A program made the position numbers and the translations under genes. The notes under the pieces are model-generated. The model did not search any database, had not been told where the DNA came from, and saw nothing but the letters and a program-made list of their open reading frames with translations. A stretch of DNA of 64,000 nt, from NCBI GenBank assembly GCA_030065265.1, contig JASJCW010000006.1, positions 1,820-65,819 on the forward strand. The letters are read 5' to 3'. This document shows, piece after piece, positions 990 through 59,534 of this stretch (position 1 is its first letter; each line of letters starts with the position of its first letter). The DNA comes from Prochloraceae cyanobacterium. GTDB lineage: Bacteria > Cyanobacteriota > Cyanobacteriia > Cyanobacteriales > JASJDA01.

Positions 990-2325
990 TTTTAGCAAGA
1001 TTCGCGAGAATCCTACGATTGTAATCTTTGATTCAATCGTAGATGAATCGCCACCCAGATTTTTTTTTGTGCTATAATTATTTATAGTAAATTAAATTTG
1101 CTCTAAATGCTCAAAGTAGTCAAAGTAAGATTATATCCAAATAGCCAGCAGCAACAAGCCTTAAGCCAGTCTTTTGGTAATACTCGCTGGCTTTGGAATT
1201 ATTGTCTTAATTTGATGAATCAAACTTATATAGATACAGGAAAAGGATTATCGGGATACGAAGTTAAAAAACGAATACCACAACTGAAAAAAGAATACGA
1301 GTGGTTAAAGTTAACTTACTCTCAATGTTTGCAGCAAGTTTGTTTGAACCTTGGTACTGCTTTTAATAACTTCTTTGAACGAAGAGCTAAATATCCTCGT
1401 TTTAAATCAAAGCATGGTAAGCAATCTATACATTATCCTCAAAATGTTAAGCGGATAGAGGATTGTTTAAGGCTGCCAATGATAGGGGACGTAAAAGCAG
1501 TATTTCATCGAGAAATAAAAGGGAAAATAAAGACTGTAACTGTATCTAAGAATAAATCAGATCAATACTATGCTGCTATTTTATTTGAAGATGGAAAAGA
1601 TCAACCAGAAACAAATACTAATGGGAAAGCAATAGGTATAGACCTGGGAATTAATCACTTTGCTATAACTAGTGATGGTAGCAAGTTTGACAACCCTAGA
1701 TGGTTGACTAAACACGAGCATAATTTAAAAATTAAGCAACAAAGATTATCTAGAAGGGAGAAAGGATCTAGTAACAGAAATAAAGCTAGAAAAATTGTAT
1801 CTAAAGTACATAAAAAAATAGCTGATTGTCGCTCTGATTTTCATCACAAGCTATCACGCAGGATAGTAGACGAAAACCAAGTTATTGTAGTTGAAAATCT
1901 AGCAGTTTCAAATATGGTCAAGAACCGCAAACTATCCAAGGCTATAAGTCAAGTTGGCTGGGGACAATTCTGTACTATGCTTAAATATAAAGCAGAACAA
2001 GAGGGGAAAGTATACCAAGAAGTAGATAGGTTCTTTCCTAGCTCAAAAACTTGTAATGTTTGCCTTAACCAAGTGGATAGTTTGCCTCTTGAAATAAGAT
2101 TTTGGAACTGTTCTAACTGCGGTACTAAGCACATAGATCGTGATGTCAACGCCGCCAAAAACATCCGAGATGAAGGACTGCGAATTATTTCCTCTGGGAC
2201 GGGGGATAAAGCCTATCGCCAAACTGTAAGACGAAGTAATAGAGGACGCAAGAAATCTACTACATCGCTTGTTTCTGGGTAGGAAGCTGCTCTTGTAATC
2301 TCTGATTCAAGAGCGGTAGTTCACT
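990..2325 (+). mobile_element. IS200/IS605-superfamily TnpB-only element (no TnpA); boundaries approximate
   Basis: The tnpB ORF is flanked by two hairpins with nearly the same 12-nt loop. Left: ctacgattg-TAATCTTTGATT-caatcgtag (1013..1042). Right: gctcttg-TAATCTCTGATT-caagagc (2289..2314). This is typical of IS200/IS605 subterminal hairpins. Confidence 0.65.
1107..2282 (+). CDS. tnpB: TnpB (IS200/IS605 OrfB-type RNA-guided RuvC nuclease), apparently intact
   Basis: RuvC triad context is present: GIDLGINHFAITSDG (D), VVVENLAVSNM (E), DRDVNAAKNI (D). Zinc ribbon CNVC...CSNCG. Size of 391 aa is typical. Confidence 0.9.
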   Translation: MLKVVKVRLYPNSQQQQALSQSFGNTRWLWNYCLNLMNQTYIDTGKGLSGYEVKKRIPQLKKEYEWLKLTYSQCLQQVCLNLGTAFNNFFERRAKYPRFKSKHGKQSIHYPQNVKRIEDCLRLPMIGDVKAVFHREIKGKIKTVTVSKNKSDQYYAAILFEDGKDQPETNTNGKAIGIDLGINHFAITSDGSKFDNPRWLTKHEHNLKIKQQRLSRREKGSSNRNKARKIVSKVHKKIADCRSDFHHKLSRRIVDENQVIVVENLAVSNMVKNRKLSKAISQVGWGQFCTMLKYKAEQEGKVYQEVDRFFPSSKTCNVCLNQVDSLPLEIRFWNCSNCGTKHIDRDVNAAKNIRDEGLRIISSGTGDKAYRQTVRRSNRGRKKSTTSLVSG

Positions 2326-9842: not shown

Positions 9843-9867
9843 ATCGGTGTTCCTAGGAACACCGATT
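9842..9867. repeat. Dispersed 26-bp palindrome, copy 3 of 8 (perfect)
   Basis: aatcggtgttcctaggaacaccgatt. Its first base is the last base of the TGA stop of 9282..9842. Confidence 0.9.
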
Positions 9868-10773: not shown

Positions 10774-11433
10774 TTATTGATTTTTTACGCTCGTGGAGTC
10801 CCCTGCGCGAAATACAGATGGCATTATATCTGAGGTTATTGTTTTAGATTCAGAATTGTTGACAATTTTTATCCCTTGAATCAGATCTCGAATAAAGACC
10901 AGATCGGTGGAAATGTAATTTTCAGGTAGCGACTGTTCGATCTCTTCTATCTGCCACTGAGAGCGATCGCAATTTAACAGCAGGTTGCCTGCTATTTTTA
11001 CAGCTAGAGTAAAGTAAGGCTTATAACCGACTGTCCCATTTAATGGCAATTGCTTTGCTTCTATTTTGAGAAAAGAAATTATAGCCTTTTGTAAGTGGGA
11101 GTAAGAACTAATTTTACTGTCATTGGCTAAAAAATACAAAAAATCTTCTAACTCATTTGAAGTCTCTAAATGTTCTGGGATGCTAACTTGTAGATTAGAT
11201 TTGCTTTGAAAGTCCTGTACTCTTTTGATAGTTTCTATGAAATTTTGTATTTCCTCGCCACTTTTTTTAAGACTTTTAGATTCGAGGCAATCTTGAAAGC
11301 TACGCAAACAACAGATTAAAAAGTCAGATTTGTAGCTGACAATCTTGCCTAATTCAGAATCCGCTAATATTCTTTTAAACTCAGTAGGGAACGATTTTAT
11401 TAATCGTTGTATCTTTTTCTCGTCTAGTTTCAT
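10774..11433 (-). CDS. hypothetical protein (219 aa)
   Basis: ORF from the track. Its ATG overlaps the terminase ATG on the other strand (CATGATG, 11431..11437). Confidence 0.55.
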   Translation of the reverse strand: MKLDEKKIQRLIKSFPTEFKRILADSELGKIVSYKSDFLICCLRSFQDCLESKSLKKSGEEIQNFIETIKRVQDFQSKSNLQVSIPEHLETSNELEDFLYFLANDSKISSYSHLQKAIISFLKIEAKQLPLNGTVGYKPYFTLAVKIAGNLLLNCDRSQWQIEEIEQSLPENYISTDLVFIRDLIQGIKIVNNSESKTITSDIMPSVFRAGDSTSVKNQ

Positions 11434-12877
11434 GATGCTAAATAGAATTATTACCCCTAAATATAAAGGTAAAATAAAAGACTGGGGTAAACTGCATTCA
11501 TTTACTCAAACTGTGGATGCTGCGAGTTATCCAGTGTTCGAGCCAAATCCTGGCGGTCAACAGGAAATCTTTGATCGTCTCTCTCTCAGTAGCATTTATG
11601 GCGGTGCTTATCGCTGGTATTGGATCCTCGGTGGCATAAACTCAGGTAAGTCTACTTGTGCTGCTGCTTTTATCTGCAATCAAGCCAGATTAGATCCCAG
11701 TATTAGAATACTCATAACTGCTAACAGCTATCCTCAGCTAATGATGAGTACTTTAGTTGCTCTAGCTGAATTCTGCGAGAAATTTGGCTACAAGCTAGAA
11801 CCATCTCTACCTTCGCCAGAAGACACAGCAGCAAAAATAGCAGCATTAAAGCATTGTAAAATAGAAGGTGCTTATTGTTTCGTCAGATCTGCTGATAGTT
11901 TCACTGGTGCAACTGAAAAAGCCAAACAAGGAGGCCGCGGCATACAAGTAAGAATTGTTTGGTGGGACGAGGGAAGTTACAACGATCGTATGTGCTTTCA
12001 AACTATAGACGGACGTTTAGGACGTGGCGCGGGTAGTGTAAAAGGGATAGGAATAATCAGCAGCAGTATCAATAGGATTAACCCATTTAACTGGACATAC
12101 GATCTATTCGCTAGCGATCGTCGAGATGAATTACAAAAGCAGATATATGGTAGTACGATTATCCCCACCACGGAAAACATACACGCCGATCCCGATTTCG
12201 TACGATCTCAAGAAGCTTCACTTACTCCAGAATTAAGAGCATTAGAACTCGAAGGTAGATTCGTTAGCATTACCACTGGTCGAGTGTTCAATTACTTCAA
12301 ACGCGATCGCCACTTAAAATCGCTATCAGTCAATCTCAATTTATACGTGTGTGTCTCTTTTGATTTCAACCGATCGCCAGCTACCTGCTTGATAGCACAG
12401 AGCAGTGGACGATCGGTTGAAGTGGTAAGAGAGTTTTATTTATTGGAATCGGACACCATGCAACTAGCTGAAGCTGTGGCACAGTATCTAAGGAAATTGG
12501 GAGTTTCTGTATTAGTATATGGCGACAGTACGGGCATTCAAAGAACAGCTAATAGTAAATTTACAAACTGGCAAATAGTCTGGGATACCTTTAGCAGACA
12601 TGGGGTTTATGGCGTTAGAAAATATCCCGATCGCAATGCCAGCGTTTTAGATAGCGTCCACAGCGTCAATAATGCTTTCAATCGAGATGAGATCTTTATC
12701 GATCCTAGCTGTAAGGAACTCATAGCAGATCTGGAATTTTTGACGTGGGATAAAAATGACAAAATAGACAAGCGCGACATCAAGCGATCGCACTTAGGTG
12801 ATTGTTTGAGATATTTGATAGATGGCATACTTCCATATAGAAGAGAAACCATCAAGAGATCTGGTCGTTGGGGCTGA
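11432..12877 (+). CDS. terL: terminase large subunit
   Basis: Walker A ILGGINSGKSTCAA. Walker B RIVWWDEGS. C-terminal nuclease-like acidic motifs (VSFDFN, VYGDSTG, GDCLRY). ATG at 11432 chosen within the track ORF 11345..12877. Confidence 0.9.
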   Translation: MMLNRIITPKYKGKIKDWGKLHSFTQTVDAASYPVFEPNPGGQQEIFDRLSLSSIYGGAYRWYWILGGINSGKSTCAAAFICNQARLDPSIRILITANSYPQLMMSTLVALAEFCEKFGYKLEPSLPSPEDTAAKIAALKHCKIEGAYCFVRSADSFTGATEKAKQGGRGIQVRIVWWDEGSYNDRMCFQTIDGRLGRGAGSVKGIGIISSSINRINPFNWTYDLFASDRRDELQKQIYGSTIIPTTENIHADPDFVRSQEASLTPELRALELEGRFVSITTGRVFNYFKRDRHLKSLSVNLNLYVCVSFDFNRSPATCLIAQSSGRSVEVVREFYLLESDTMQLAEAVAQYLRKLGVSVLVYGDSTGIQRTANSKFTNWQIVWDTFSRHGVYGVRKYPDRNASVLDSVHSVNNAFNRDEIFIDPSCKELIADLEFLTWDKNDKIDKRDIKRSHLGDCLRYLIDGILPYRRETIKRSGRWG

Positions 12878-12888
12878 TTCTCTCAATT

Positions 12889-12954
12889 GCTATAGCAATC
12901 CGATTTAATTCGTAAATGTGATTTCCTGCTCAATTTCACGATCCAGATCGGATT
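12889..12954. repeat. left copy of the duplicated hairpin element flanking the PadR cassette
   Basis: gctatagc-aatccgatttaattcgtaaat...tttcacgatccagatcggatt. Shares both ends with 14273..14386. Confidence 0.7.
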
Positions 12955-12987
12955 ATATTTCAATCTCTTGATTTATTGAAAACTTGC

Positions 12988-13020
12988 AAAAAAAACTCCT
13001 GAATTGTACAATTCAGAAGG
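12988..13020 (-). terminator. rho-independent terminator of the cassette (minus strand)
   Basis: On the minus strand: ccttctgaattg-ta-caattcaggag followed by T8. Confidence 0.7.
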
Positions 13021-13067
13021 TTAGAAACTTATTGCTTTACCAGGCTAGTAGCCTGGCAGTTTGAAGA

Positions 13068-13313
13068 TTACGAACTCGAAAACGGAATCAGCCCTTTTAG
13101 CCAATAAAACAATTTATCAAGCACGGTTTCAAATTTGCCCCAAAATAGCTGTGCTATTTTTATTGAATCAAACAGAATGAGACCTTTTGGGTTTTCCGTG
13201 TCTTCTTGTTGGTTTATCATATCAAATCTATCTTGGTCGCAGTGGTATAACCACGCTTCAGCATCTTCTTTTCCTAACAAAGCATAAGCCATAGGCAAAC
13301 CCAATTCTTTCAT
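13068..13313 (-). CDS. small hypothetical protein (81 aa) downstream of PadR
   Basis: Trimmed from track ORF 13068..13727, whose upstream part overlaps the PadR frame. ATG at 13313 gives MKELGLPMAYALLGKEDAEAWLYHCDQ.... Confidence 0.5.
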   Translation of the reverse strand: MKELGLPMAYALLGKEDAEAWLYHCDQDRFDMINQQEDTENPKGLILFDSIKIAQLFWGKFETVLDKLFYWLKGLIPFSSS

Positions 13314-13326
13314 TATCAAGGTTCTT

Positions 13327-13965
13327 TTATATCTTTTCTGATTCAGCGGATACGTCTGCAAGTAACAACTCAAATTTTGAGTTGATATTGCTTCTGACAT
13401 ATCCCCAGCCTTTTGGGGTAAGCTTGTAGTAACGTCTTCTTGCACCACAATTGCTTTTTTCGTCCCCCCATCTCCCAGAGATGAGTTCTTTGTCTCCAAG
13501 ATTTTTGATGATTGGGTAGATCGAACCCTCAGAGAGTCTTTTTCCTGTCGTCTCCTGGATGATCTGTTGTATTTGTTTGGAGTACAACTCCCGACATCCG
13601 ATTGCGAAGAGAACGGTCTCTTCTCTTTGTGTGACTTTGACTTGAAATTGGGTGAATTTAGATTCTTCATTGTGGGGGTTTGTTTTTTCCCTACTAAATA
13701 CCTCTGAGTCAAAAGATTCTGAGCCAAGAGAATCTGTAAGCTTTTTCAGGTATTTGTACAAATCTTCCACTAGTTCTTTAGCGGGCTCACCTCGTGGAAG
13801 AAGTCTTCTTTTTAAACTATTTGTGTTCATAATTTTCAGCCGTTCATACTCGCGATGTGATTTTGTCTTGTCCAGCCCCTTAGCTAGACAGAAGAGATCT
13901 TTGTGCGATCGTGGGGATCGATGGTGTGGTGATGTGATTTGAGTATTGTCGGAATCGTCGTCCAT
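13327..13965 (-). CDS. PadR-family winged-helix transcriptional regulator (start uncertain: 13965, 13830 or 14070)
   Basis: C-terminal half has LYSKQIQQIIQETTGKRLSEGSIYPIIKNLGDKELISGRWGDEKSNCGARRRYYKLTPKGWGY, the PadR signature pattern. Confidence 0.7.
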   Translation of the reverse strand: MDDDSDNTQITSPHHRSPRSHKDLFCLAKGLDKTKSHREYERLKIMNTNSLKRRLLPRGEPAKELVEDLYKYLKKLTDSLGSESFDSEVFSREKTNPHNEESKFTQFQVKVTQREETVLFAIGCRELYSKQIQQIIQETTGKRLSEGSIYPIIKNLGDKELISGRWGDEKSNCGARRRYYKLTPKGWGYVRSNINSKFELLLADVSAESEKI

Positions 13966-14017
13966 CTCCTGAAGTAGTCCTTGTAAGACGATTACGAAGT
14001 GGGGAGGGCATACAATT

Positions 14018-14200
14018 CTACAGTCCAATTCCATTATCAGCTCCAATTCCATTACCAAGATAGGCAACACTAGGAAAAATCAAAGTCGCGATCGTAACCA
14101 CAGAACCAAGAACTAACCCTCCTAATGAACCTCCATTCGCAGCAGCAGGACTGGTGTCCCTTGTGTTGCTTGTTTTTTGTTTATTTTTACAAAAAATCAT
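14018..14200 (-). CDS. small membrane protein (60 aa)
   Basis: Hydrophobic GGLVLGSVVTIATLIF. First gene after the cassette promoter. Confidence 0.4.
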   Translation of the reverse strand: MIFCKNKQKTSNTRDTSPAAANGGSLGGLVLGSVVTIATLIFPSVAYLGNGIGADNGIGL

Positions 14201-14229
14201 TTTTGGTACTCCGTTATACTTACTGTTTT

Positions 14230-14259
14230 AGTATAACCTTGGATTTCCAAGGTTGTCAA
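14230..14259 (-). promoter_or_regulatory. near-consensus sigma70 promoter with a palindromic operator in the spacer
   Basis: Minus strand reads TTGACA-accttggaaatccaaggt-TATACT, with an 18-nt spacer formed by the palindrome at 14236..14253. Sits about 30 nt upstream of the 14200 start. Confidence 0.65.
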
Positions 14260-14272
14260 GAACAAATATAGT

Positions 14273-14386
14273 AATCTGATTTAATTCGTAAATCCAATCG
14301 TCTGCTTAATCCTGTGCGTCACTACAGGGATTCAGCGAGTCGGATTGCCCCGCTCGATTTCACGACTCAGATCGGATTGCTATAGC
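14273..14386. repeat. right copy of the duplicated hairpin element flanking the PadR cassette
   Basis: aatctgatttaattcgtaaat...(extra ~45 nt)...gctcgatttcacgactcagatcggatt-gctatagc. Confidence 0.7.
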
Positions 14387-14453
14387 TTAGATATTAAACG
14401 AAAGATTGAATGTTGATACAATAAACGAACAGTTTGCAGATGAGAAATATTAA

Positions 14454-15974
14454 GTGGTTAATCTCTCCGAGTTAAACTCTAACTCACTTTTCCTCGCTCC
14501 CACAGGAGATGTAAGCAAAAAGGATCCCGACTACCTAAAAAATTTACCTACCTTAATCTACTTAGAAGATATGTGGACGGGTTTAGAAAATTGGTACAAA
14601 GACGGAATTGTAATTGATGTCCTAAAAGCTGAAAGATATCTACCTAAATTCAAGTATGAAGACGACGGTATCTACAGAAATAGATTGGCTCTGACTAGTT
14701 GGGACGATAAGTTTAAACGTACTATAGAGCAAGATTTAGCTGGCTTGCTCTCAAAAATGGTTGTGTCTAACTTGCCACCTACTTTAGAAGAGAATATAAA
14801 CAATGTAGATTTAAGCGGGAACTCATTAGACGTTGTTCTCAAGACATTAGATGTGTTGTCACTGAGAGACGGATCTGCATTTTGCTTGATCGACTTTCCC
14901 AACGAATCGCCACCACAGAACGAACTTGAAAGGAGGCGATTGCGATCGAGACAGCGACCTTATTTAGTCCCCATACCGAGAAAGCAGATAATAAACTGGA
15001 AGTATTCTAACGCTAGTGGCAATCTAACCATAGAGCAAGTCGTCATCAAGAGGGAGATTAAGAAGTATTTAGATCGTTTCGATCGCCAGTACGTCACTCA
15101 ATATCTAGTCTTAGAACCTGGTACGTTTGAAATTTACGAGAAAACTGATGCTGTCTCAACAGAAGAGTTAATCTTAGTAAACCGCGGTCAAACGAGCTTA
15201 GACTTCGTTCCCATTGTCGGATATTCGTTGCACTCGTCAGATCCTTTCCTGGCTGATTTCCCTTTAAAGTGCATAGCCGATCTGAATCTAGATTTATATC
15301 GCTACGATGCCGATCTAAAGTGGTCTCAACACCTTGCTAATTGCCCTACATTAGTTTATGAAACGATGTCAAAAGTCAAAGACGGAACTCTCCAAGGTAC
15401 GCAGCAAACTAAACAAGATGAAGAGTTAAAGATCGGTGCAGGGCAAATAATTTTTGCTGAATCTAAAGTTTACTGGTTGGAGCTAGAAGGGAAAACTCTA
15501 GAGTCAACTATGAAACTAATGCAGTTGACTAACGAGAATATCGATCGCAAGTCTATTGGATATCTCACAGGTATTCTCGGCAAGCAAAAAACAGCCACGG
15601 AAATCAGTATAAATGCCTCGCAAGCTGAAGCCAACCTAGAAGCTATATCGAAACAAAAGCAATCGGCGATCGAGCAAATATTGAGAGTTTGGCAATCTTA
15701 CACCAACGAAAATGTAGAGCCAGAATTCAGCTTCGATACTAGCTTCTTAACTAAATCACTCCAAAATACAACATTGAGCGATTATCGGGAATCTTGGCTA
15801 GTTGGGTGGCTTTCACATTCACTTTCTCTGAAATTAGCCAGTGATGCTGGTGCATTCCCTAAGCCGCTTAGCGATCGCGAACTTGAAGATGAATTAAGCA
15901 ATAATAGGGTAGAATCTCAATTAACTCCACCGCCAATATTACCGAGCGAGCCAGACGAGAGAGGCAATGTATGA
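14454..15974 (+). CDS. putative portal protein
   Basis: 506-aa ORF and the first structural-size gene after terL (ignoring the inserted cassette). Acidic C-terminus. GTG start. Called from position and size only. Confidence 0.5.
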   Translation: MVNLSELNSNSLFLAPTGDVSKKDPDYLKNLPTLIYLEDMWTGLENWYKDGIVIDVLKAERYLPKFKYEDDGIYRNRLALTSWDDKFKRTIEQDLAGLLSKMVVSNLPPTLEENINNVDLSGNSLDVVLKTLDVLSLRDGSAFCLIDFPNESPPQNELERRRLRSRQRPYLVPIPRKQIINWKYSNASGNLTIEQVVIKREIKKYLDRFDRQYVTQYLVLEPGTFEIYEKTDAVSTEELILVNRGQTSLDFVPIVGYSLHSSDPFLADFPLKCIADLNLDLYRYDADLKWSQHLANCPTLVYETMSKVKDGTLQGTQQTKQDEELKIGAGQIIFAESKVYWLELEGKTLESTMKLMQLTNENIDRKSIGYLTGILGKQKTATEISINASQAEANLEAISKQKQSAIEQILRVWQSYTNENVEPEFSFDTSFLTKSLQNTTLSDYRESWLVGWLSHSLSLKLASDAGAFPKPLSDRELEDELSNNRVESQLTPPPILPSEPDERGNV

Positions 15975-16588
15975 AAATTTTTATCGACACCGAATTTATC
16001 GAAGACGGGAAGACGATCGACCTAATATCTATTGGCATGATTAATGAAGATGGCGAGGAATATTACGCTATCAATTTAGATTGTAAATTTGATCGCGCTA
16101 ATGATTGGGTTAAAGAAAATGTTTTCCCTCCCATTGGCATAAAATTAGAAAAAGAGTTTAATTACATTAAATTCCCTAAAGAAAAAACATTATTAGATTA
16201 TTATAAAAATAAACCAGTAATAGCTAAAGAAGTAGAGCTATTTTTAAGAGGAAATAATGGAGATCGAGATATTGAAATATGGTGCGATTACGGTCATTAT
16301 GACTATGTAGTCATATGCCAGTTATACGGAAAAATGATTAACTTGCCTAATATTTTCCCGTACTACTTTAACGACATTCAAAGTTTAGCCAGGCAATTAT
16401 CTAGAATTAAAAACTATCAAGTATTGCTAAATTCTATTTTACCTGAAGATTTAGAAATTGATGGAAATCATAACGCTCTTTTAGGTGCTAAAAGTTGCAA
16501 GTTAAGATATGAATATTTAGAAACTATGCTTACTAGTATCCAAAATGTTTTGTCTGACGAAAGAATCGATTTACCAAAATTTAGTTAG
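15971..16588 (+). CDS. DEDD 3'-5' exo(ribo)nuclease, Rv2179c-like
   Basis: MKIFIDTEFIEDGKTIDLISIGMINEDGEEYYAI (DxE motif), YGHYDYVVICQLYG, GNHNALLGAKS. The layout matches the Rv2179c-like exoribonuclease family as I remember it. Confidence 0.7.
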   Translation: MKIFIDTEFIEDGKTIDLISIGMINEDGEEYYAINLDCKFDRANDWVKENVFPPIGIKLEKEFNYIKFPKEKTLLDYYKNKPVIAKEVELFLRGNNGDRDIEIWCDYGHYDYVVICQLYGKMINLPNIFPYYFNDIQSLARQLSRIKNYQVLLNSILPEDLEIDGNHNALLGAKSCKLRYEYLETMLTSIQNVLSDERIDLPKFS

Positions 16589-17948: not shown

Positions 17949-19874
17949 TTATTTGAAAATATCTTGATAAGATATATTTGCATCTTCATAGACTATTGCT
18001 TGATTAGCTAACATTCTTATTTCCTGAACTTTTCTAAGCAAAACTGTCAATTCAGCAGGACTTGAGATTATATCCGCTAAAGATACAGCGAATTCAGCAC
18101 AATATTTATTGACATCTTCGTGTTTTTTCTGCCTTTCTTTATTTACAGGTGGATGATAAGAAAAAAGGTTTTTTAATTTTTCTTTGTTCACGATCTTTCT
18201 ATCTCTAGTCAATCTTTGCAATAAATTATAGCACTGTTGGACTTCCACTGAAGAAATATTTAAACAGGATTCTATTTCGCGATCGCTGGCATCTTCTAAT
18301 TTTAAAGCTACGAACAGTTCTAAACGATCGACAATTTCTTTTGAGTAAACTTTACTGGCACGATCGAGAAGTAGTTCTATTTCGGTTTGAGCTTGATTTG
18401 AAGTTTCTTCAGTTGGATTATGCTTTGCCCATTCTGGAAGATAAGAAGTATTTTTGACATTTGAATTGTCTATTTTATACTTTCTAAGAAAATGTAATAA
18501 TTTTATATTTACCCAAGATATTTTGCTTAAAGTTCCATTTTCTTTTTTGCCAATTTCAATATAAATATTCAAAGTCTGATAAATATGAGCGTACAGATCG
18601 GATATTTCAATTTTAGTTTTAGGTTCGTAATCTAAAGGCAAGCAAGAATCTTTTAAATATTTTTCCCTAGCCTTTTCTATAAAGAAAATAGCGAATTCTT
18701 GAGAGTAATTATCTACTAAAACTAAATCATTGTTTGTTATGGCAACAAGTCTTCGATAAACTTTATGTTTGATTGCATTGACGATTTTATTAAATATTAA
18801 ACTAGTATTTAATTGATAAACATATTGAATATTTTTTAAAAACTTATCTCGCCAAAATTCTATTAATGCCGATCGCGGCGTTACTTCTTGTTGTTTAGCT
18901 TTTTGTTTTTCTTGCTTTCTAAAAGCGATTAAGGTAATTTCAACTGACAATCTAGCTGCTACTTTTAGACAAGATTGTTTTTTATATCCATCTAATTCTC
19001 TGAGATTGCAGTAAAAATAATGAATTAGTTCTGCTACGATCGCATTAAATTCTTCAACTAAATCTCGCGGACACCAATAAACAGGGTAATCAAATTCAAA
19101 AAAATTCATTCCATTTTTGATAGGGGTATCTCTTTTAGCACATTTACGAATGGCAGTTGAAGATATATTTAAAGCTGTTCCTGCTTTTACTGCGTCTTTA
19201 TAGTATTCTTTGCGATCGAGCCTTACCAAAGGTATAGGTCTACCAACAGTTCGCTGTTTTACTTGATTTAGTTTGTATACTTTACTGGCTATTTCAGGTT
19301 TCAAACATTTGCATAAGTTCTTTTTTTCTATGCCCCAAAATTCTTCTGGATTAGTTAAAGCGAATTGATTTAAAGCTTTTTTAGTTATTAAATAGCGCGT
19401 TATTTTATTTGGTTTAATTTCCTTAAATTTTAACCCTTTTTCTTTCCATCTAAGTATCCTGGTTTTATGCTTTAAACCAAACGTTCTCATGAGATCGTGA
19501 ACGCACCAATTGTCTTTTGAAACTTTAATTTTTTTATTGGTTTTAGAGTATTCAAGTTTAACATAATTGTTTTTAAGCTCTGGAACTGTTTTAACAAGAA
19601 AACGAATTTTATGAATGATCTGAGACGATGTTTTTTGATACCATCCTTTTTTTTTAGCTATATTATTCCACTGTTCGATAATAATAAAAAGTGGTTGAGT
19701 CTGAATTAATTTTGTTAATTTTTGCTCTTCTTCTTTTGACCAAATAGCTCCAGGATTTCTGGTCTTAACAATTAGTTTCGCTCTACATTCAGGAGAGCAA
19801 GATTTTCTTTTTTTATATTTAGGCTGTTGAAATTCTTTGCCGCAAAATTCGCAAATACTTTTCTCTTTAAGCAA
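17949..19874 (-). CDS. large multi-domain DNA-binding protein (Zn-ribbon-like N-terminus, SANT/Myb-like WSKEEEQKL, NUMOD1-like HTH, sigma70 region-4-like HTH)
   Basis: 641 aa. CEFCGKEF...CSPEC. AGTALNISSTAIRKCAKR. LEDASDREIESCLNISSVEVQQCYNLLQRL. Domain calls are from pattern recognition only. Confidence 0.6.
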   Translation of the reverse strand: MLKEKSICEFCGKEFQQPKYKKRKSCSPECRAKLIVKTRNPGAIWSKEEEQKLTKLIQTQPLFIIIEQWNNIAKKKGWYQKTSSQIIHKIRFLVKTVPELKNNYVKLEYSKTNKKIKVSKDNWCVHDLMRTFGLKHKTRILRWKEKGLKFKEIKPNKITRYLITKKALNQFALTNPEEFWGIEKKNLCKCLKPEIASKVYKLNQVKQRTVGRPIPLVRLDRKEYYKDAVKAGTALNISSTAIRKCAKRDTPIKNGMNFFEFDYPVYWCPRDLVEEFNAIVAELIHYFYCNLRELDGYKKQSCLKVAARLSVEITLIAFRKQEKQKAKQQEVTPRSALIEFWRDKFLKNIQYVYQLNTSLIFNKIVNAIKHKVYRRLVAITNNDLVLVDNYSQEFAIFFIEKAREKYLKDSCLPLDYEPKTKIEISDLYAHIYQTLNIYIEIGKKENGTLSKISWVNIKLLHFLRKYKIDNSNVKNTSYLPEWAKHNPTEETSNQAQTEIELLLDRASKVYSKEIVDRLELFVALKLEDASDREIESCLNISSVEVQQCYNLLQRLTRDRKIVNKEKLKNLFSYHPPVNKERQKKHEDVNKYCAEFAVSLADIISSPAELTVLLRKVQEIRMLANQAIVYEDANISYQDIFK

Positions 19875-22663: not shown

Positions 22664-23185
22664 ATGGCATTTTTCACAGATGTCTTTTCGGTTCCGACGC
22701 TAACAGAACTTAAAGCGATTGCCTCTACTGGCAGACGAGATCGTATGAATGTTTTAGTCGCTGAGCCAGCAACGGGTTATATTGGAGCAACTTACAGTTA
22801 CAGACAAAATGCTACTCTAACGGAACTATTGCCCATAATTGCCGTCCCAAATGACACTCAAGGTGCTTGGGTATCGAACAATCCTATATATGCTGATACT
22901 GCTATCCCTTCAGCAGCACCGCCATTAATAGGGATTATTTGGGTGGCTACACTTACCAGTCCCGATCGCGTGGTCACTTTTCGTTCTGTGGGAACTAGTG
23001 CTGATACTGATTGGATTCCAGTTAACAACAATGCGGTTGTAGATAGCGCGACACCTTCTCACAGTGCTGATTTTATCGGGCAAATTTTCTATGACAATAG
23101 CGCTGATGAATTTCATCTGGCAACTGATACTTTCGGAACTTGGCAATTAATAGGGAGCAGTACTGGCGGTGGTACAGGATATTAA
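22664..23185 (+). CDS. hypothetical protein (173 aa), possibly structural
   Basis: ORF from the track. Gly-rich C-terminus GSSTGGGTGY. Confidence 0.55.
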   Translation: MAFFTDVFSVPTLTELKAIASTGRRDRMNVLVAEPATGYIGATYSYRQNATLTELLPIIAVPNDTQGAWVSNNPIYADTAIPSAAPPLIGIIWVATLTSPDRVVTFRSVGTSADTDWIPVNNNAVVDSATPSHSADFIGQIFYDNSADEFHLATDTFGTWQLIGSSTGGGTGY

Positions 23186-24506
23186 AATTAGTGTAATCAC
23201 GACTTTTTATAATGCGGAAGCTTACCTGAGACAAGCAATTGAAAGCGTTTTCAATCAAGAATATACTAATTGGGAATTGGTTTTGTGGGACGACGGATCG
23301 ACTGATGGGAGCGAAGCGATCGCCAGAGAGTTTCTCAGTCAATATCCTGAAAAAATATATTTAGCCAAAGACAATACAAACAAAGGGAGAGGGAACGCTC
23401 TATACGAAGCGATCGAAGTCTCGACAGGTGAAGTTTTTTGCATTCTCGATGCTGACGATCGCTTAGGTACAAAAGCTTTAAGCTTGGTTAATAACGTGTT
23501 TATTAATAATCCTCCTAACGTCGGATGGTTGTATACCAATTATACTGAGTGCGATAAGGACGGCAATCAACTAAGGCTCGGTACTAAGAATAATATTATC
23601 TACAGCAGATTAAACGAACTTCATACAATGTGCTGTTTTCATCTGAGAGCTATTAGGCGATCGTTTTACGAGGAGACTCCTAAAGTCAATCGCACTCTTA
23701 CAGCAGCAGTTGACCACGATCTAAACCTCAAACTTTCGGAGCAAGGGAAGCCAATACACATTAAAAAAGCTGTTTACAAGTATCGGTTACACAGCAATCG
23801 TATCTCCGTAGAGAAGAAAAAAGAACAGGGAGAAACTTTTGTCGCTTGCTCTGAAGCAGCAATAAAGCGTAGAGGTTGGGAAGGTAGATATTATCTCTCT
23901 CACACTGAAGATTACAGCAGTATTCAGCTATGCGAGAAAAAGTATCTTAGGGAACCTTTGCCACAAAAAGTATTCTGTGTTGGTTTAGGTCGGACGGGAA
24001 CGCGATCGCTTACTAGAGCTATTCAGATGCTAGGCTACAACACAGTTAAGAATCCTCGCGATTTAAACGTACTTCAATATTTTGATGCTGCTTCAGACGT
24101 GCTGATAGCTGCTAGCTACCAGCAATTAGATGAGACTTATCCTAATAGTAAATTTATACTGACAGTTAGAGATATTCCCAGTTGGTTAGATTCGTGGGAG
24201 CAGCACAACACGCGATCGCTCTCTAGATTTAATAATGAGCTTCCACAATGGGTTAAAGATTTCAGGATTATGTTATACAGTCAATGGGAGTTCGATCGCA
24301 CTGTATGGCAAGCTAAATACAATCAGCATTATAACTCTGCAAGAAATTATTTCTCGGGTAACTCTAACTTTATTGTTTTTAATATTTTCGAGGACGATCG
24401 TTGGCAAAAGTTAACACAATTCTTAGCTTTAAATAGTGATTTGCCACTATCTGTAACCGAAACAAACAAAGTAACTAGTAACAAGTTTCCTGCGATTAAA
24501 AATTAA
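23169..24506 (+). CDS. bifunctional family-2 glycosyltransferase / sulfotransferase fusion
   Basis: N-terminus ISVITTFYNAEAYLRQAIESVFNQEYTNWELVLWDDGSTDGS ... ILDADD (GT2). C-terminus FCVGLGRTGTRSLTRAIQMLGY ... KFILTVRDIPSWLDSW (PAPS-binding-loop sulfotransferase pattern). Confidence 0.8.
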   Translation: MVQDIKISVITTFYNAEAYLRQAIESVFNQEYTNWELVLWDDGSTDGSEAIAREFLSQYPEKIYLAKDNTNKGRGNALYEAIEVSTGEVFCILDADDRLGTKALSLVNNVFINNPPNVGWLYTNYTECDKDGNQLRLGTKNNIIYSRLNELHTMCCFHLRAIRRSFYEETPKVNRTLTAAVDHDLNLKLSEQGKPIHIKKAVYKYRLHSNRISVEKKKEQGETFVACSEAAIKRRGWEGRYYLSHTEDYSSIQLCEKKYLREPLPQKVFCVGLGRTGTRSLTRAIQMLGYNTVKNPRDLNVLQYFDAASDVLIAASYQQLDETYPNSKFILTVRDIPSWLDSWEQHNTRSLSRFNNELPQWVKDFRIMLYSQWEFDRTVWQAKYNQHYNSARNYFSGNSNFIVFNIFEDDRWQKLTQFLALNSDLPLSVTETNKVTSNKFPAIKN

Positions 24507-33174: not shown

Positions 33175-33199
33175 ATCGGTGTTCCGAGGAACACCGATT
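33174..33199. repeat. Dispersed 26-bp palindrome, copy 5 of 8 (aatcggtgttccgaggaacaccgatt)
   Basis: Starts on the last base of the fibre gene's TGA. The convergent gene 33202..33531 ends 3 nt after it. Confidence 0.9.
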
Positions 33200-35042: not shown

Positions 35043-35581
35043 TCTTACAAGCTCTAGAATATGGAGAGAAATTTTATAGAAAAGAAAAGGTAGACTCAGA
35101 ACTCCCGATCGCCGCGCTTACTCGTCAACTGGTAGCCATACACGATACTAAAAATCGCAAGTACAAGCTATCAGATTTCTGCTTGTTTGCTGAAGAAACT
35201 AAAAAAACTGCTGATATACCTGCAGCAGTAGCTAATACTTTCCTTTCTCTCACTGCTCAAAGTAAAGTCCCCAACTGGTGTTTATTCTCTGGTCTCGATC
35301 CTCAGAAAATAAAAGCTAGCTCGGATTTAGAATCAGGCTACACCATTCCAAGAGCTTGGACGAACAGGGAGGAAAAAGTCTTCTTTGTCTCTCCTTTCTT
35401 TTTAAATCAAGAGCTAATAGTTCCTCTGTGCTTTTTCGGTCGCAATTTCAATCGATCGCAAGTAATAACTCTGAACGACGTGGATAGCGGTAAAGGATAC
35501 AGAGTACACCTAAAAGATCTTCAGAATTTTTGCGGTTATGCAGATAAAGAAGTATTTAACTTAGTTGGTATTGTAGTATGA
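34308..35581 (+). CDS. tail assembly chaperone GT-like fusion made by a -1 frameshift at 34898..34904 (about 424 aa)
   Basis: By my codon-by-codon reading the -1 frame is open from 34847 to the stop at 35579..35581. Track ORF 35183..35581 is the tail end of this frame and has only a TTG start. Confidence 0.65.
34898..34904 (+). other. programmed -1 ribosomal frameshift slippery site A_AAA_AAC
   Basis: Zero-frame codons are ATA AAA AAC (I K N), so X_XXY_YYZ is satisfied exactly. Confidence 0.65.
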
Positions 35582-38500
35582 GCGAAGTCTCTATAAAGTT
35601 ATCGGTAGGAATAGACGAGCAAGAGTATCTCAGAGAGATAAGTAAAATACAGAGATCGCCTGTAGATTTACAAGCTAGCTTAAATCCCACTGGCTTAAAA
35701 AGTGACTTTGAGAAATTCTCTCGTACCAACAAAATAGACTTACAGCCAGCTTTAGATACTCGCTCTCTTGGTAATTCCCTAGCCAGAGCAGCAAGACAAA
35801 CTCAATTAAATCTAAATTTTACTCTAGACAAAAAAGCTACTGAAGAAGCTATCAAACAATTCGCTAAACAGAAACAAACTATTATTAGCAGTGCTGGAGA
35901 AGTAAAGGATAATTCCAATAAAGATTTAGCCAATACTCTTAATAGTTTTACCAAGGATTTTAGCAGAAGCTTACAAGAGTTTAACAAGGAGTTAGCTCGA
36001 CAACAAAAAAGAAATAAAACTGGATTATTTGGCAATGTATTTAAGGCTTTGTTAGGAGGAGCTTTAAGTCAAGTAGGAGGCTTTTTAGCACAGTCTTTTA
36101 TAGATCGAGCCAGAGCGCAAGCTTTCAACCTTGCCAGGATTTTAAGTGGCAAAGGTGCCATTGAGGAGTTTAAGGGAACTGACGCACAAGCTAAAACATT
36201 ACAACTTAGATATTTAGAAAGAATTGCTAGAAATACCAACAAATTAAGCTTTGGCGGTTTAGAAAATGAAGTTAATAGAGCTAAGAATAATACTAAAAGT
36301 ATTATAGACATACTAAAAAGTATCGATCGCAAAACTGAAAAGCCAGAAGGTTCTATATCTAAGCTGCTAAAAATTCCCTTTGCCAAATTAGAGCAAATAT
36401 CAGTGGGATTCTTTGAAAGGATAGGAGGGTTAAAAGCTGAAACAGTGTTCCCAGCTTTCGACCGAGGCTTTAAAGAAGTTCTGGGAATTAAAGATGAAGA
36501 CATACAAAAAGAAGCTTTTACTAAAGGAGCTATATTCGCAGCACTGCTTAAAGAAAGTGGCACGCAGTTAGATAAATTCAAACAGAAATTATTAGCTAAT
36601 GTTGAAGCGCTAAAAATAGCTGCTGTAGAGAGAGCCAAAGAAGTTAAGAAGCGCGGGGGCAAAGCAGCAAAGGATCCTTTAGCTGAAGTAGGGCAAGCGC
36701 TAGAATTCCTAGATCGTGCAGTTCCTAAAGAAATAGCTGTACCTATTAAATTTATCGTTCCTTCTAAGACTCTACGAGCCATATTAGAAGAAAAAGGAGT
36801 GCTAGTAAAAGGTAGGGAAGAAATTACAATACCTCTCAGGTTCGACGTAAAAGGAAAGCTAGAGACTGTAGTCAAGACTTTAGATGAAAAGATACCAGAA
36901 AAATTAAACATCCCAGTTACTCTTCTCCCTACCAATATCAAAGAAACTTTAGGGCAAGTATTTAAAATTCAAGACGAACAAATAACAATACCTTTAAGAT
37001 TTGATATACCTTCACCTCAAGATATATCTAAAAAAATTCAATCCCTCTATGGCAAGCAAGCAGGGATTAAAATCAGTATCCCTATCTTCCCAGATATAGA
37101 CTTAAGGGCAGAAGAAGCTAGGCTGATTACCGAGCCATTGAACGAACTTAAAAAGAACATTCAAGAAGTAATAAGAACGCAACAAATCAAGATACCTCTA
37201 ACATTTTTAGCTAACTTTATTACCCCTGAAAATGAAGGTCAAGATATTGCTGATTATGCTAAGGGATTGAGAGGGAAAATAAATCAAATACTATTAAACA
37301 ATTTTGACAAAGAGATAATCGTACATTTAGACAAAATAATACAGCCTTTTTTAGACCCAAGTAGTTTTGTTTCTCAAGTAAAAGAATCAGTAAAAGTCTT
37401 GCCTTCAAAAGTCAAGGAAGCTTTAAAAAATCTACCAGATATAGACATAGAAATCCCCTTGTCAATACCTCAGCTACAGATACCTAGTTTTGGTATGTCG
37501 TCTCTTTCTGGGAACAAAATAGAAGCTTATGCGCTTTCAGTTATTGACGCTGTAAATTTAAAATTACTGCAAGTATCAGCAGCAACTAAAGAAGGGATAA
37601 AGTTTAAAATACCTGTCCCAAAAATAGATTTAGATGCTCTATCGATGAGTTTAAAAATGCTCAAGTTAGAGTTAGAATCAGAGTTAATTGCTAGACTGCA
37701 AAAGTTAGATCGACCTATAGACATTAAAATTCCTAAGATTACTTTTAAGATTCCCGATCGCATCGAAGATCCAAAAATCATAATGAAATACAACATTGTG
37801 ATGCAACAGATATTAGCGGGAATCAGGGAAGAAACCGATTCTATAAATGAAGCTTTAGCGAAAATTTCTTTCGGGGCAATTCAAATACCTAGGTTTAGTT
37901 TGCCTCCACTAACCAGAACGGGAGCCAATAAGTTTTTAGATTCGTTGCGAGAAATAAAGGCGACTATTAACGAGGATATTGATAGTTTTAATGTTGCACT
38001 TAACGAGTACCTAAATAGTTTTAAAAATGGCTCTAAAAGTTTTATTCTCCAACTTAGTTCAGTTGTTGGCAATATACCTAATGCTATACAATCTAGCATA
38101 CAAGATTTTAGCTTAGAGAAAGTTACTGCTGAACTAAAAACTAAAGTAAGTAAGTTTGTAAAAGATGTTAAAGAGTTAGACGATCGCAAGATAGCTGTAA
38201 ATTTAGAGATTTGGAAATTCAACGTAGTCAACAACATCACGGACGCTTACAGAGATTTAGAGAGCAAGATCAAATCTATTCCACCTCTAACAATTCCTTT
38301 ACCTAACATTGTTTTGCCAGATCTAGGGATTATATACCCCACATCAGTAGACGAGAAAATATATATAGGATTCGTCAACAGGTTTAACAAGACTTATCAA
38401 AACTTGAGAGAAAAGCTACAAAATATCAAATTAGGGGATCTTAATATCCCTATTAAACCAGGTAGTATATTACTAAGTATAAAAGCTTTTGAAATCACAG

Positions 38501-41500
38501 AGGATGTAGTCTCCCTTCAAAAGAACTTTGACCGAGCGATCGGTTTAATTAATAATCAATTTGAAGTTGGCAAGAATAGAATAGAAAAAACTTACACTGA
38601 TTTAGTTATTTCCCTCGAAGCTTTTAGCGGCAAGGATCTTAAGTTAAATCTTCCTAATATCCAGATACCAGATCTAGGCATAGATATTAATACAGCTAGC
38701 GCCGATGAGAAAGTATTCAAACAGATAGTAGATGCTATAAATCAAAGCTATTTAAAAGTTAAAACAGCACTCGAATCGAAATCGGTTAAACTGCCAGAAT
38801 TCAAACTACCATTAACAATCAATGCCCCTAAAATACAATTGCCTAACAGCTACGATATTATTTTTGGCACTCAAGACTTAATAGATTACTCGAAAAAAAT
38901 TTATAATGAATTTAGAGGGAAGTTACAAGAGTTAGCTAACGACCCGTCTTTATCAGTAGAAATAAAAATACCTAAGCTCAAGTTAAAGTTACCTGAAATA
39001 GTATACAAAGATATTGATAAGTTACCAGGATTATTAAGAGTATCTCTCAAGACTTTAAAACTTGTAGAGACATTACAAGATGTCTTAGACAGAGAGGCTG
39101 ACAAAACTATAACTATAAAATTCCCTAATATAGAATTACCAGAAGCCGAGCAAATACCAGAAGTATTTAAGCAAAAAATAAAAGGAATAAAGCAAGGAGT
39201 TTTAGAGCTTCCAGCAAAAATAAATCTACAATTACAAGAAAGTCAAAAAGACTTACAAGTTTTATTAGAAACTTCAAAAGCTATTTTTGGCAATATGGCT
39301 AATAGTTACGCTGTTCTTTTTGGAGCTAAAATAAGCGAAACTAAAAATAAATTTTATGATTTTATAGATAACATTCCTAAAAGAATAGAAATAGATTTAA
39401 CTTTTGACTTGCCAGACCCCAACCAATGGTTGGAGCAAGCCAATAAAACTATAGAAGAGATAGTTAAAAACCTGAGAAAAGCTCAAGGAGAGTTCAAGTA
39501 TAGAGACTTGCAGCAAGCTGTAAAAGCTTACAAACAGCAAGGCTTGACAGATATTGACTTGAGATCGAGCGCTGCTAAACTGCAGGCTGAATACGATCGG
39601 ATCAAGCAAATTCAAGTCAGTGAATTTAAAGAGATGGTTGGGAATGCTGGGAAAACAGCAGAACTCTTATCGCGATCGTTCCTATTCGATCTGATTTTTT
39701 CCGATATTAGTGCAGCATGGCATAAAACCAACAATTCCCTAACAGGGGACATGAAAGATCTCTCCCATCTCTCCGAAAAGATCGGTGATGACGTGCTGCA
39801 CGATTTGGCTGAAGGTTCCCCAGGACTGACAGCAGACATAAGAGCAGCATGGGCTAAAACTACTGCTTTTATAGGGAAAAAGCTACACGAAGTCAAGCAA
39901 GCAGCAGTAAGCGCAGGGAGCAAAATAAAAGAGAGTTTGACAGCGCCACCCACACAAGAGAGTTATACATCTTCTCAAGGTAAATATGATAGCTCTAGAG
40001 CGCAAGCAGCTATCAGAGGAGTGCGATCTAGTGCAGCAGAAAACGTACAAAATCTAAAGCAGCGTTTCAGCAATACTGCCAATAGAGCAGATATAGGGGC
40101 TAGGAATGTAGCAGGTAGATTTTTTGACGAGGGAGATGTTAATCGCGAAGCTGACAAGATAAAAGATAGTATCTCTGACTTTGCCTCACAAGTTCGAGAT
40201 ACGATCGCTAATGGAACTGAAGCAGCTAGAACCGCAGCGAGGAAAAATCTATTTAAATCAACTGACGACGTTAATAAGACTTTAAATAAGCTGAGAAACT
40301 ATAAAAAGGATTTTGACAAGGTTTACTCAAGTCTGTTCGAGCAAGTTAGACGAGCCGCGCCAAATGTCGATCTCAGTTCGTTAGAGCAAAGCTTAACTAA
40401 GATCTCTCAAGCTGAATCGAAAGTAAGCAGCTTATTGGAAAACTTCGACGTACCGCTAGATCTGGAAGGAAATATTGACAGTGACAAATTACTGAGAGAT
40501 CTGGCCAAAGTAGAGAAAGCGCTAAACGAGTATAGAAAGGACATTAAGGAACTCAACAAAGAAACTACCCTCTTGTCTCCTAAAATGCTAAACGCTCTTC
40601 CAGAAGATGTGAAAGCAGCAATTAAGAGAGCTGCTAGTGCTGCTAGTGCTGAATTGGATAATTTGAGCGAACGCGGTCAAAGAGCCATTAGGGATATATT
40701 CGATTTGCCGCCAGAACTAACAAGCCAATTACCAGAAAAGCTTAGAAGCCAATTAGAGAATTTAATCCAGCGCGGTGGTGGTCAAAGGTACTCTCAAGCT
40801 GAAGAAGAAATGAGAGGTGTTACTCAGCAAGCTAATAGATTAGCTCAAGCATTAGGACAAGTAAGAAAAGTAGGAGGGAAAGCTCTATTCTTATTACTTG
40901 GCTTCGTTGCTATTAAATCAGCTTTCTCAAGTCTATTCGGCCAGATAGGGCAAATAGTACAGTCAGCAGTTTTAGATTTGCAGAATAATTTTAACAATGC
41001 CATTGAAGTAAGAGCATTTAAAAACCTCTTCAAGCAATTCGAGCGATCGGCTAATGACAGCTTTGACTCAGTAATAGAAAAAGCTAACAGATTAGGGCAA
41101 GACTTAAAGACTTTAGCTAACACTCAATTATCATTTCAATTATCACTTCAAGGGACAGCAGTAGAGGATCAGTCAAGTCAAATCACGGAAAGCTTAACAG
41201 CAGGTTTAAGCGCTTTCGGACTGTCTAAGGACAAGTTTCAGCAAGCGATGACAGCTTTACAGCAGATAGCAGGAAAGTCAGTTGTTAGCATGGAGGAGTT
41301 GAGGCAACAATTAGGAGAAGCCCTACCAGCAGCAACAGCCATAGGTGCTAGATCTATGGGATTGACTCAACAGGAATTCAATCAATTAGTAGCATCAGGA
41401 AATTTATTAGCTGAAGACTTTTTACCGAAGTTTTCTAAACAGTTAAAACTAGAAACTATGGGCATTTTTATTAAAAATGCTAACAGTGCTTCTAACAGTT

Positions 41501-45534: not shown

Positions 45535-45560
45535 AATCGGTGTTCCTAGGAACACCGTTT
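45535..45560. repeat. Dispersed 26-bp palindrome, copy 6 of 8 (aatcggtgttcctaggaacaccgttt)
   Basis: 3 nt after the stop of 45274..45531. One arm mismatch at the outer end. Confidence 0.85.
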
Positions 45561-54903: not shown

Positions 54904-54929
54904 AATCGGTGTTCCTAGGAACACCGATT
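54904..54929. repeat. Dispersed 26-bp palindrome, copy 7 of 8 (perfect)
   Basis: aatcggtgttcctaggaacaccgatt, 6 nt after the stop of 54082..54897. Confidence 0.9.
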
Positions 54930-59508: not shown

Positions 59509-59534
59509 AATCGGTGTTCCCAGGAACTCCGATT
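59509..59534. repeat. Dispersed 26-bp palindrome, copy 8 of 8 (aatcggtgttcccaggaactccgatt)
   Basis: 6 nt after the stop of the minus-strand methyltransferase gene. One arm mismatch. Confidence 0.85.

Follow-up and report, generated by a model that had tools for sequence, protein, structure and literature searches.

A PadR cassette bordered by IS630-like miniature elements at the terminase-portal junction of a phage-like contig from Prochloraceae

The acquisition of morons by phages is usually ascribed to illegitimate recombination that leaves nothing to trace, and to our knowledge the classic morons have no transposon ends. Units in which a resistance gene is flanked by MITEs (miniature inverted-repeat transposable elements) are known from Acinetobacter and Enterobacter. 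Elements of the IS630/Tc1/mariner group insert into the dinucleotide TA, which they duplicate, and for the IS630-family insertion sequence (IS) ISY100, which also inserts into TA, about 30 bp per end is enough in cis (PMC2170065); Tenzen and Ohtsubo (1991) report an IS630-associated composite transposon whose preferred target is the TA in CTAG. Here, we describe a 1,490-nucleotide (nt) unit within a 64,000-nt stretch (hereafter, the window) of contig JASJCW010000006.1 from the assembly of a Prochloraceae cyanobacterium (GCA_030065265.1). The unit occupies positions 12893-14382, in the intergenic region between the genes for the large terminase subunit (terL) and the portal of a phage-like region, and consists of a small operon for a PadR-family regulator on the opposite (-) strand, bracketed by two hairpin-forming elements. 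Judged by their ends, these two "hairpins" are MITEs, derived as short non-autonomous versions from an IS630-family IS of cyanobacteria, and the chance that the whole unit was moved into a TA as a MITE-flanked composite transposon is, in our estimate, about even or slightly below.

A sequence-only reading of the same stretch had described an oppositely transcribed insert between terL and the portal gene, and this layout holds, every feature named being found where it had been placed or only a few bases away: the insert is about 1.5 kb long and includes open reading frames (ORFs) for a 60-amino-acid (aa) protein, the PadR protein and an 81-aa protein (Table 1; NCBI protein entries for the locus, MDJ0723722-25), followed by the hairpin-plus-T8 terminator that had been read from the letters. 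The two copies of one element that bracket the insert had been noted as well, and each element arm indeed occurs exactly twice in the 64 kb, against about zero occurrences expected.

Table 1. Coordinates of the features discussed (window positions unless a contig is named)
Feature	Position	Strand	Basis or remark
terL (large terminase subunit)	11432..12877	+	Pfam Terminase_6N; stop codon 12875-12877 is the left edge of the variable slot
TA, putative target-site duplication	12891..12892		adjoins outer left terminus; partner 14383-14384
Left MITE, about 63 nt	12893..12955	+	outer terminus TAGCAATCCGAT perfect; inner decayed
Intrinsic terminator	13019..12988	-	10-bp stem, 4-nt loop, T8
81-aa ORF, partner of PadR gene	13068..13313	-	ORF list
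PadR-family winged-helix regulator	13327..13965 (212 aa) or 13327..13830 (167 aa)	-	PF03551
60-aa ORF, single hydrophobic stretch	14018..14200	-	ORF list
Sigma-70-type promoter TTGACA-18-TATACT	14259..14230	-	consensus scan
Spacer palindrome ACCTTGGA-TT-TCCAAGGT, putative PadR operator	14236-14253	-	sequence scan
Right MITE, about 114 nt	14269..14382	+	inner terminus TAGTAATCTGAT; outer terminus perfect
TA, putative target-site duplication	14383..14384		adjoins outer right terminus; partner 12891-12892
Portal gene	14454..15974	+	DUF4055 (Pfam)
Full-length IS copies	L103 597-2014; L107 2676-4094		about 1.42 kb each; perfect inverted ends TATAGCAATCCGATCTGAGTCGTGAAATC

The identification of the flanking elements starts from their outer ends. 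In alignment, the outer 31 nt of the right element match the terminus of the full-length copy on metagenome contig L103 at 100% identity, and so do the outer 16 nt of the left element. The transposase of the full-length copies is encoded in two overlapping frames, orfA (231 aa; HTH_33, HTH_23) and orfB (142 aa; DDE_3), which cover positions 2-182 and 186-294 of the NCBIfam model transpos_IS630 with 85.3 and 74.4 bits, each below the whole-protein cut-off of 100; its close relatives include an intact single-ORF form of 342 aa (P0086), and the named relatives listed are all "IS630 family transposase" from cyanobacteria (Halomicronema, Synechococcus, Nostoc, Microcoleus, Komarekiella). Both window elements are non-coding and hold no ORF, and their folding comes down to the inverted ends pairing with each other (on the + strand, z lies at about -2.3 to -2.4; -8.8 kcal/mol and z = -2.4 for the left one). 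The two stand in direct orientation, although their outermost 28 nt are inverted repeats of each other, the octamer GCTATAGC included, and neither is more than about 35 nt away from the promoter or terminator of the cassette. Their inner termini have decayed, the left one to ..ATCGGATT-A with GCT lost and the right one by two transitions. The two contain unequal numbers of internal subterminal repeat units, and we regard them as sister copies because they share a derived left arm, GATTTAATTCGTAAAT, where the IS has GATCTGAGTCGTGAAAT.

The same family recurs well outside the phage. Scanning metagenome contigs with the right arm returned 19 loci, 17 of them true matches, and in these 17 family termini the conserved part stops at ...GATTTCACGACTCAGATCGGATTGCTATA, the flanks diverging right after GCTATA. 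Three contigs carry an identical element interior between differing flanks, the behavior of a mobile-element terminus, which points to mobility. The 17 loci have no genes in common with the phage, are of similarly low G+C and mostly contain sites of the highly iterated palindrome HIP1, which fits a host-genome origin. Searches with the left arm yielded only chance matches: its 16-mer hit 93 loci in viral contigs, none extending to the full arm or with the right arm nearby, and the arm gave 14 single matches in unrelated taxa among species-representative genomes; no dispersed family with that arm was found.

The window elements are therefore best compared with the IS630/Tc1/mariner group and its MITEs (e.g., ISY100 of Synechocystis), with which they have in common inverted termini shared with a full-length element, a helix-turn-helix (HTH) plus DDE_3 transposase with cyanobacterial relatives, TA at both flanks, and small non-coding derivatives; short ends suffice in the case of ISY100. 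Unlike in ISY100-type elements, the transposase of the 1.42-kb parent IS is split over two frames in the copies seen, and the window copies, whose left arm has diverged, are part of a phage genome. A further difference is that many members of the IS/MITE family carry subterminal tandem repeats of about 24 nt. Separately, we observed long tandem arrays of an about 24-nt unit, CGATCGCCNGTTCAATTCNN, which contains the HIP1-like GATCGC, just inside the terminus on two contigs (L105, JAAUYD010015312.1; L108, JAAUYD010200867.1), and the right window MITE holds degenerate copies of it.

Three other identities were considered for the flanking elements and rejected. IS200/IS605 (TnpB) elements have hairpin-forming ends too, and one of them fills the same slot in a relative (L097, below), but the window elements have true inverted termini and an IS630-type match, with no similarity to the ends of the L097 element. 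Integron attC sites are likewise not in question; the ends AATCCGAT / ATCGGATT lack an R''/R' core (RYYYAAC / GTTRRRY) and the cassette has its own promoter. A structured RNA was rejected as well, the only Rfam matches being at noise level, with 20 bits (gathering score 160) and 19 bits (gathering score 120). The first of these, to the plant microRNA precursor MIR5048 across the right MITE (14267-14384, -), probably reflects the generic foldback shape of MITE-like sequences.

The comparison with relatives shows where the insert begins and ends. Homology to them stops at 12873 and restarts at 14395-14404, upstream of the portal start. In L099 the slot is empty, with terL and portal 171 nt apart, neither the hairpin element nor GCTATAGC present, and flanks 81-82% identical at the DNA level; in L095 it is empty too, the junction measuring 51 nt (TerL 72% identical). 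L097 and L098 carry an IS605-type tnpB on the - strand and a 91-aa ORF between flanks that are 86-88% identical (DNA), and L094 has an unrelated orphan 330-aa ORF on the forward strand (TerL 73% identical). The sequence-only reading had held that the same genes at this position in all relatives would speak against an insert; the relatives compared here do not all carry them, and the cassette is, on this comparison, an accessory insert (moron) in the terL-portal junction, as had been proposed. Since the slots of the relatives are empty or differently filled, the junction appears to tolerate and repeatedly receive foreign DNA. A further suggestion, that the insertion had duplicated one hairpin native to the terL-portal junction, finds no support: the uninterrupted junctions have nothing alike, and the element is an IS630-family miniature found at many sites. 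As for the L097 slot itself (6145-7997 of L097; GCA_029980065.1, JARPND010000110.1), its 459-aa tnpB abuts the terL stop codon, and the 3' end of its 91-aa orphan ORF is homologous to window DNA upstream of the portal gene.

In being inserted between genes that are adjacent in relatives, in the opposite orientation and with a predicted promoter and terminator of its own, the cassette is like other phage morons, and it differs from the classic ones in that its borders are MITEs. Beyond the contigs named, a blastn comparison of the 4.6-kb region with GenBank phages gave no match, and neither TerL nor PadR peptides turned up a relative when IMG/VR was scanned with them.

The immediate borders of the unit suggest how it may have arrived. 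On the left, the flank ..ATTGC is followed by TA and the element TAGCAATCC..., and on the right ...GGATTGCTA is followed by TA and the flank GCTTAG. The octamer GCTATAGC occurs three times in the window against about one expected, so that it is not the octamer itself but its position that is significant, and it can be explained as flank GC, TA duplication and element tip TAGC, mirrored on the other side. The site before insertion would then have read CAATTGC-TA-GCTTAG (TCTCAATTGCTAGCTTAGATATT), with a CTAG core. We do not lean on this core, because the full-length IS copies in L103 and L107, which are likewise flanked by TA (or TATA), are not inserted in CTAG. Note also that, with element ends reading TA-TA, a 2-nt and a 4-nt duplication look the same.

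Under the composite-transposon hypothesis, an IS630-type transposase supplied in trans by the host would act on the two intact outer termini and the whole MITE-cargo-MITE unit would move into the TA inside GC-TA-GC, an insertion that would yield the TA/TA flanks and the two GCTATAGC octamers. We favor this hypothesis because the outer termini are perfect while both inner ones have decayed, because TA stands on both outer flanks, and because ISY100 needs so little of each end in cis. Joint mobilization is favored, further, because the only two copies in the 64 kb both abut the cassette, an arrangement that two random insertions would rarely give. Composite transposons of the type reported by Tenzen and Ohtsubo (1991) are similar in that two element copies bracket a self-contained cargo, with intact outer ends and short target duplications; unlike in the known ones, the cargo here is a PadR operon rather than a resistance gene, the recipient is a junction of phage structural genes, and the mobility is something we infer.

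How long the cassette has resided in the phage population can be judged, in part, from a second allele, that of the L100 sample, whose contig L096 starts inside the right MITE. Relative to the window, L100 is 98-100% identical over 12600-13050 (the 3' end of terL, the left MITE and the terminator), 64-85% identical over 13050-13700 (the 81-aa ORF and most of the PadR gene), replaced by unrelated DNA without a 60-aa ORF over 13850-14235 (the 60-aa ORF and upstream DNA), and again 98.6% identical over 14236-14376 (operator, -35 box and right MITE). With ends nearly identical and an interior diverged or replaced, the cassette has been in the population long enough to have diverged, recombining alleles. 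Accordingly, the description of the module as recently acquired stands only in part. The same pattern, i.e., conserved ends around a variable interior, fits a unit of exchange whose ends are conserved, and we propose that, after insertion, the two conserved ends (MITE plus terminator, and MITE plus operator) may have served as homology arms for the exchange of cassette alleles between related phages. The terL gene is also mosaic with respect to L100, an 86-95% block within 11800-12500 lying between blocks of 97-100%, which appears to indicate frequent recombination among co-occurring relatives.

The genes of the cassette, and their predicted control, are as follows. By its sequence, the regulator is a genuine short-type member of the PadR family: its ORF scores 46.9 bits against PF03551, above the Pfam gathering score (cut-off 27), and its top matches among solved (PDB) structures are PadR-family proteins such as LmrR. 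Pex, the clock-related PadR protein of cyanobacteria, was tried as a relative and rejected, since it matches only weakly (E = 0.0023) and ranks far below generic PadR proteins. The NCBI annotation starts the protein at ATG 13965 (212 aa), to which the open frame extends upstream of ATG 13830; the latter (167 aa, MNTNSL..., corresponding to M46) is the start common to P0080 and P0081 in alignment and is most likely the conserved one. Like the short autorepressors of the LmrR type, the protein has a winged helix, the motif GRWGD..RRRYY, a short C-terminal helix and a palindromic site in its own promoter; unlike them, it has an N-terminal extension of 70-115 aa ahead of the winged helix, its operon contains no efflux or detoxification gene, and its constant partner is the orphan 81-aa ORF.

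That partner closely follows the PadR gene in all three contexts known, the 90-aa homologue of L100 (67% identical) and the 86-aa one of L101 (39% identical) both lying directly downstream of PadR homologues. No further homologue was found among 1.8 billion representative proteins; the exhaustive HMMER search returned only the L101 homologue and one spurious repeat protein, and there was no match in Pfam, PHROGs, PADLOC or NCBIfam. The protein is predicted to be all-helical by a single-sequence AlphaFold2 model whose predicted local distance difference test score (pLDDT) of 59 makes it unreliable and too poor for a fold search. The 60-aa ORF, similarly without a family match in Pfam, PHROGs, PADLOC or NCBIfam, is an optional part of the cassette given its absence from L100. 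For the cassette as a whole, PADLOC matched none of the proteins and PHROGs gave only uninformative PadR-type matches, results that speak neither for nor against the role in host takeover, exclusion or defence that the sequence-only reading had offered as a possibility.

The promoter and the palindrome in its spacer, both part of the sequence-only reading, are present, with 11 of 12 consensus positions matched (the best site in a 5-kb scan) and with the qualification that the palindrome is perfect in its two 8-nt arms but not in the two central bases, TT, which are not self-complementary (8+2+8). The candidate operator reads ACCTTGGAWWTCCAAGGT; the pattern ACCTTGGA-NN-TCCAAGGT has a single exact copy in the window, the sole other match having 3 mismatches, and L100 keeps both the palindrome, with AA in place of the central TT, and the -35 box. 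In our working model, host RNA polymerase would read this near-consensus promoter, a PadR dimer would bind the palindrome between -35 and -10 and repress its own operon, and the 81-aa partner might act as effector or modulator of PadR; that is, we propose negative autoregulation. Since the terminator has no T-run on the + strand, late terL transcription could run through the cassette, antisense, to the portal gene.

A number of observations weigh against this account of origin and control. In the closest uninterrupted junction, that of L099, identity is only about 82%, and some 30 nt are missing to each side of the proposed target; the relatives include no exact empty site, and no second site with the whole 1.49-kb unit was found among the metagenome contigs or in the viral collection. 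L101 has a 54%-identical PadR protein plus partner in an unrelated context and without MITEs. In AT-rich DNA, flanks of just 2 nt (TA) carry little weight, and separate TA flanks can be assigned to each MITE as well. The shared left arm GATTTAATTCGTAAAT differs from the IS end at 6 of 24 positions, so its recognition by the transposase is putative; the window encodes no IS630 transposase, and the viral collection (IMG/VR) contains neither the IS end nor the operator palindrome. With respect to control, promoter matches of at least 11/12 number 3 in the 64-kb window compared to a mean of 4.3 in shuffles, which is why the promoter call rests on position and palindrome rather than on the match alone, which is not beyond chance; L100 does not keep the -10 box (TACTCT), and the palindrome is a putative PadR-bound operator.

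Alternatively, it is possible, though we consider it unlikely, that donor DNA, circular or linear, that held the PadR cassette beside a MITE recombined with an ancestral solo MITE at the junction. Such a Campbell-type capture would leave the cassette between two direct MITEs with the same outer TA flanks, and it is the nearest valid version of the duplicated-hairpin idea. The direct orientation of the copies, the private left-arm variant they have in common, and the recombination evidently active in this population (terL and cassette are mosaic relative to L100, with breakpoints at the terminator and at the palindrome edge) all speak for it. However, no solo MITE stands at the terL-portal junction in L094, L095, L097 or L099, and capture leaves unexplained why it is the inner and not the outer termini that have decayed, an asymmetry that the composite-transposon hypothesis takes as its starting point.

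Somewhat more doubtful still is that the moron came by illegitimate recombination and that two MITEs landed later, independently, in the only tolerant non-coding DNA beside it. That the slot tolerates varied foreign DNA (the TnpB insertion sequence of L097, the 330-aa ORF of L094), that a separate TA can be assigned to either side of each MITE, and that the window carries another host mobile element, the tnpB at 1107-2282, would fit; yet the only two copies in 64 kb abut the same cassette, both share the derived left arm, intact outer and decayed inner ends are not a chance arrangement, and the MITE-free PadR pair of L101, with its unrelated context, offers no MITE-free precursor at the junction. 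Finally, the very improbable reading of the elements as native regulatory hairpins of the phage (such as insulators, terminators or sites of RNA processing), whose duplication would keep late transcription out of the antisense cassette, is effectively refuted as regards their origin, for although they fold (z about -2.3 to -2.4, + strand) and lie exactly at the cassette borders, 31/31 bases match the end of a transposase-encoding IS, they are missing from the uninterrupted junctions, neither has a T-run or an Rfam match above noise, and the recurrent intergenic hairpin of the phage itself has another sequence, CGGTGTTCCNAGGAACACCG. Hence, we continue to favor transposition of the whole MITE-flanked unit.

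The wider window looks like a phage contig of cyanobacterial origin. It encodes a small-terminase-like HTH protein, TerL, the portal, a 3,123-aa ORF (a single ORF at 35578-44949, +) and a helicase; no tRNA genes were found in it. For terL, 65 homologues were found, the start giving 480/481 aa agrees with database entries P0066/P0067, and assemblies of Moorena, Symploca and Microcoleus supply the more distant TerL relatives. Enrichment of HIP1 is a cyanobacterial hallmark, and the counts in the whole window (34 copies of GCGATCGC vs. 0.4 expected; 93 of GATCGC vs. 7.5 expected) are a strong signature of this kind, in agreement with the Prochloraceae label.

Several further features of the window were observed along the way. 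Next after the portal gene, an Rv2179c-like 3'-5' exoribonuclease is encoded at 15971-16588 (+); the gene is present in L096, L097 and L098, but L099 and L095 lack it at this place and L094 has a 410-aa ORF instead, which makes for a second variable slot beside the first. A 20-nt perfect palindrome, CGGTGTTCC(T/G)AGGAACACCG, recurs at 9845-9864, 33177-33196, 45538-45557 and 54907-54926 and, in diverged form, at 59512-59531; flanks were read for three copies, and there ..TGAAT/TTGAAT precedes the palindrome just after an ORF end. It is unrelated to the MITEs and resembles an intergenic hairpin native to the phage, which may serve as a terminator, a processing site or a regulator site. The tnpB at 1107-2282 (+) encodes a 391-aa IS605-type TnpB (OrfB_IS605, Cas12f1-like TNB, HTH_OrfB_IS605) that is 29% identical to the TnpB in the L097 slot. 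At its C-terminus (residues 572-627), a 641-aa ORF (17949-19874, -) weakly matches the hairpin domain of Acb2/Tad1, a sponge fold used in anti-defence, with 20.3 bits (E = 6.5e-4) and so below the cut-off of 27, and a fused glycosyltransferase-2/sulfotransferase ORF (23169-24506, +) is kept in L095 and L097.

In conclusion, the PadR cassette joins kinds of element that are already known, namely phage morons and MITE-flanked composite units. It is tempting to go further and to regard IS630-type MITE pairs as a general shuttle of self-regulated cassettes between cyanobacterial chromosomes and phages, and the PadR gene with its 81-aa partner as a new module of the toxin-antitoxin or exclusion type, used for superinfection exclusion or host control; we consider this improbable at present, but, if true, it would describe a small effector restrained by a PadR protein that also represses itself. 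What the locus offers more directly is a moron whose borders are recognizable transposon ends, with an autonomous parent in the same metagenome contig series, and thus a suggested concrete route for moron acquisition, in which a MITE-flanked unit would be mobilized in trans into a TA. Among sister phages, moreover, a single structural-gene junction appears to have repeatedly taken up mobile DNA of different kinds (here an IS630-MITE unit, elsewhere a TnpB insertion sequence or an orphan ORF), and the mobile elements in common, together with the HIP1 enrichment, tie this phage to a cyanobacterial host.

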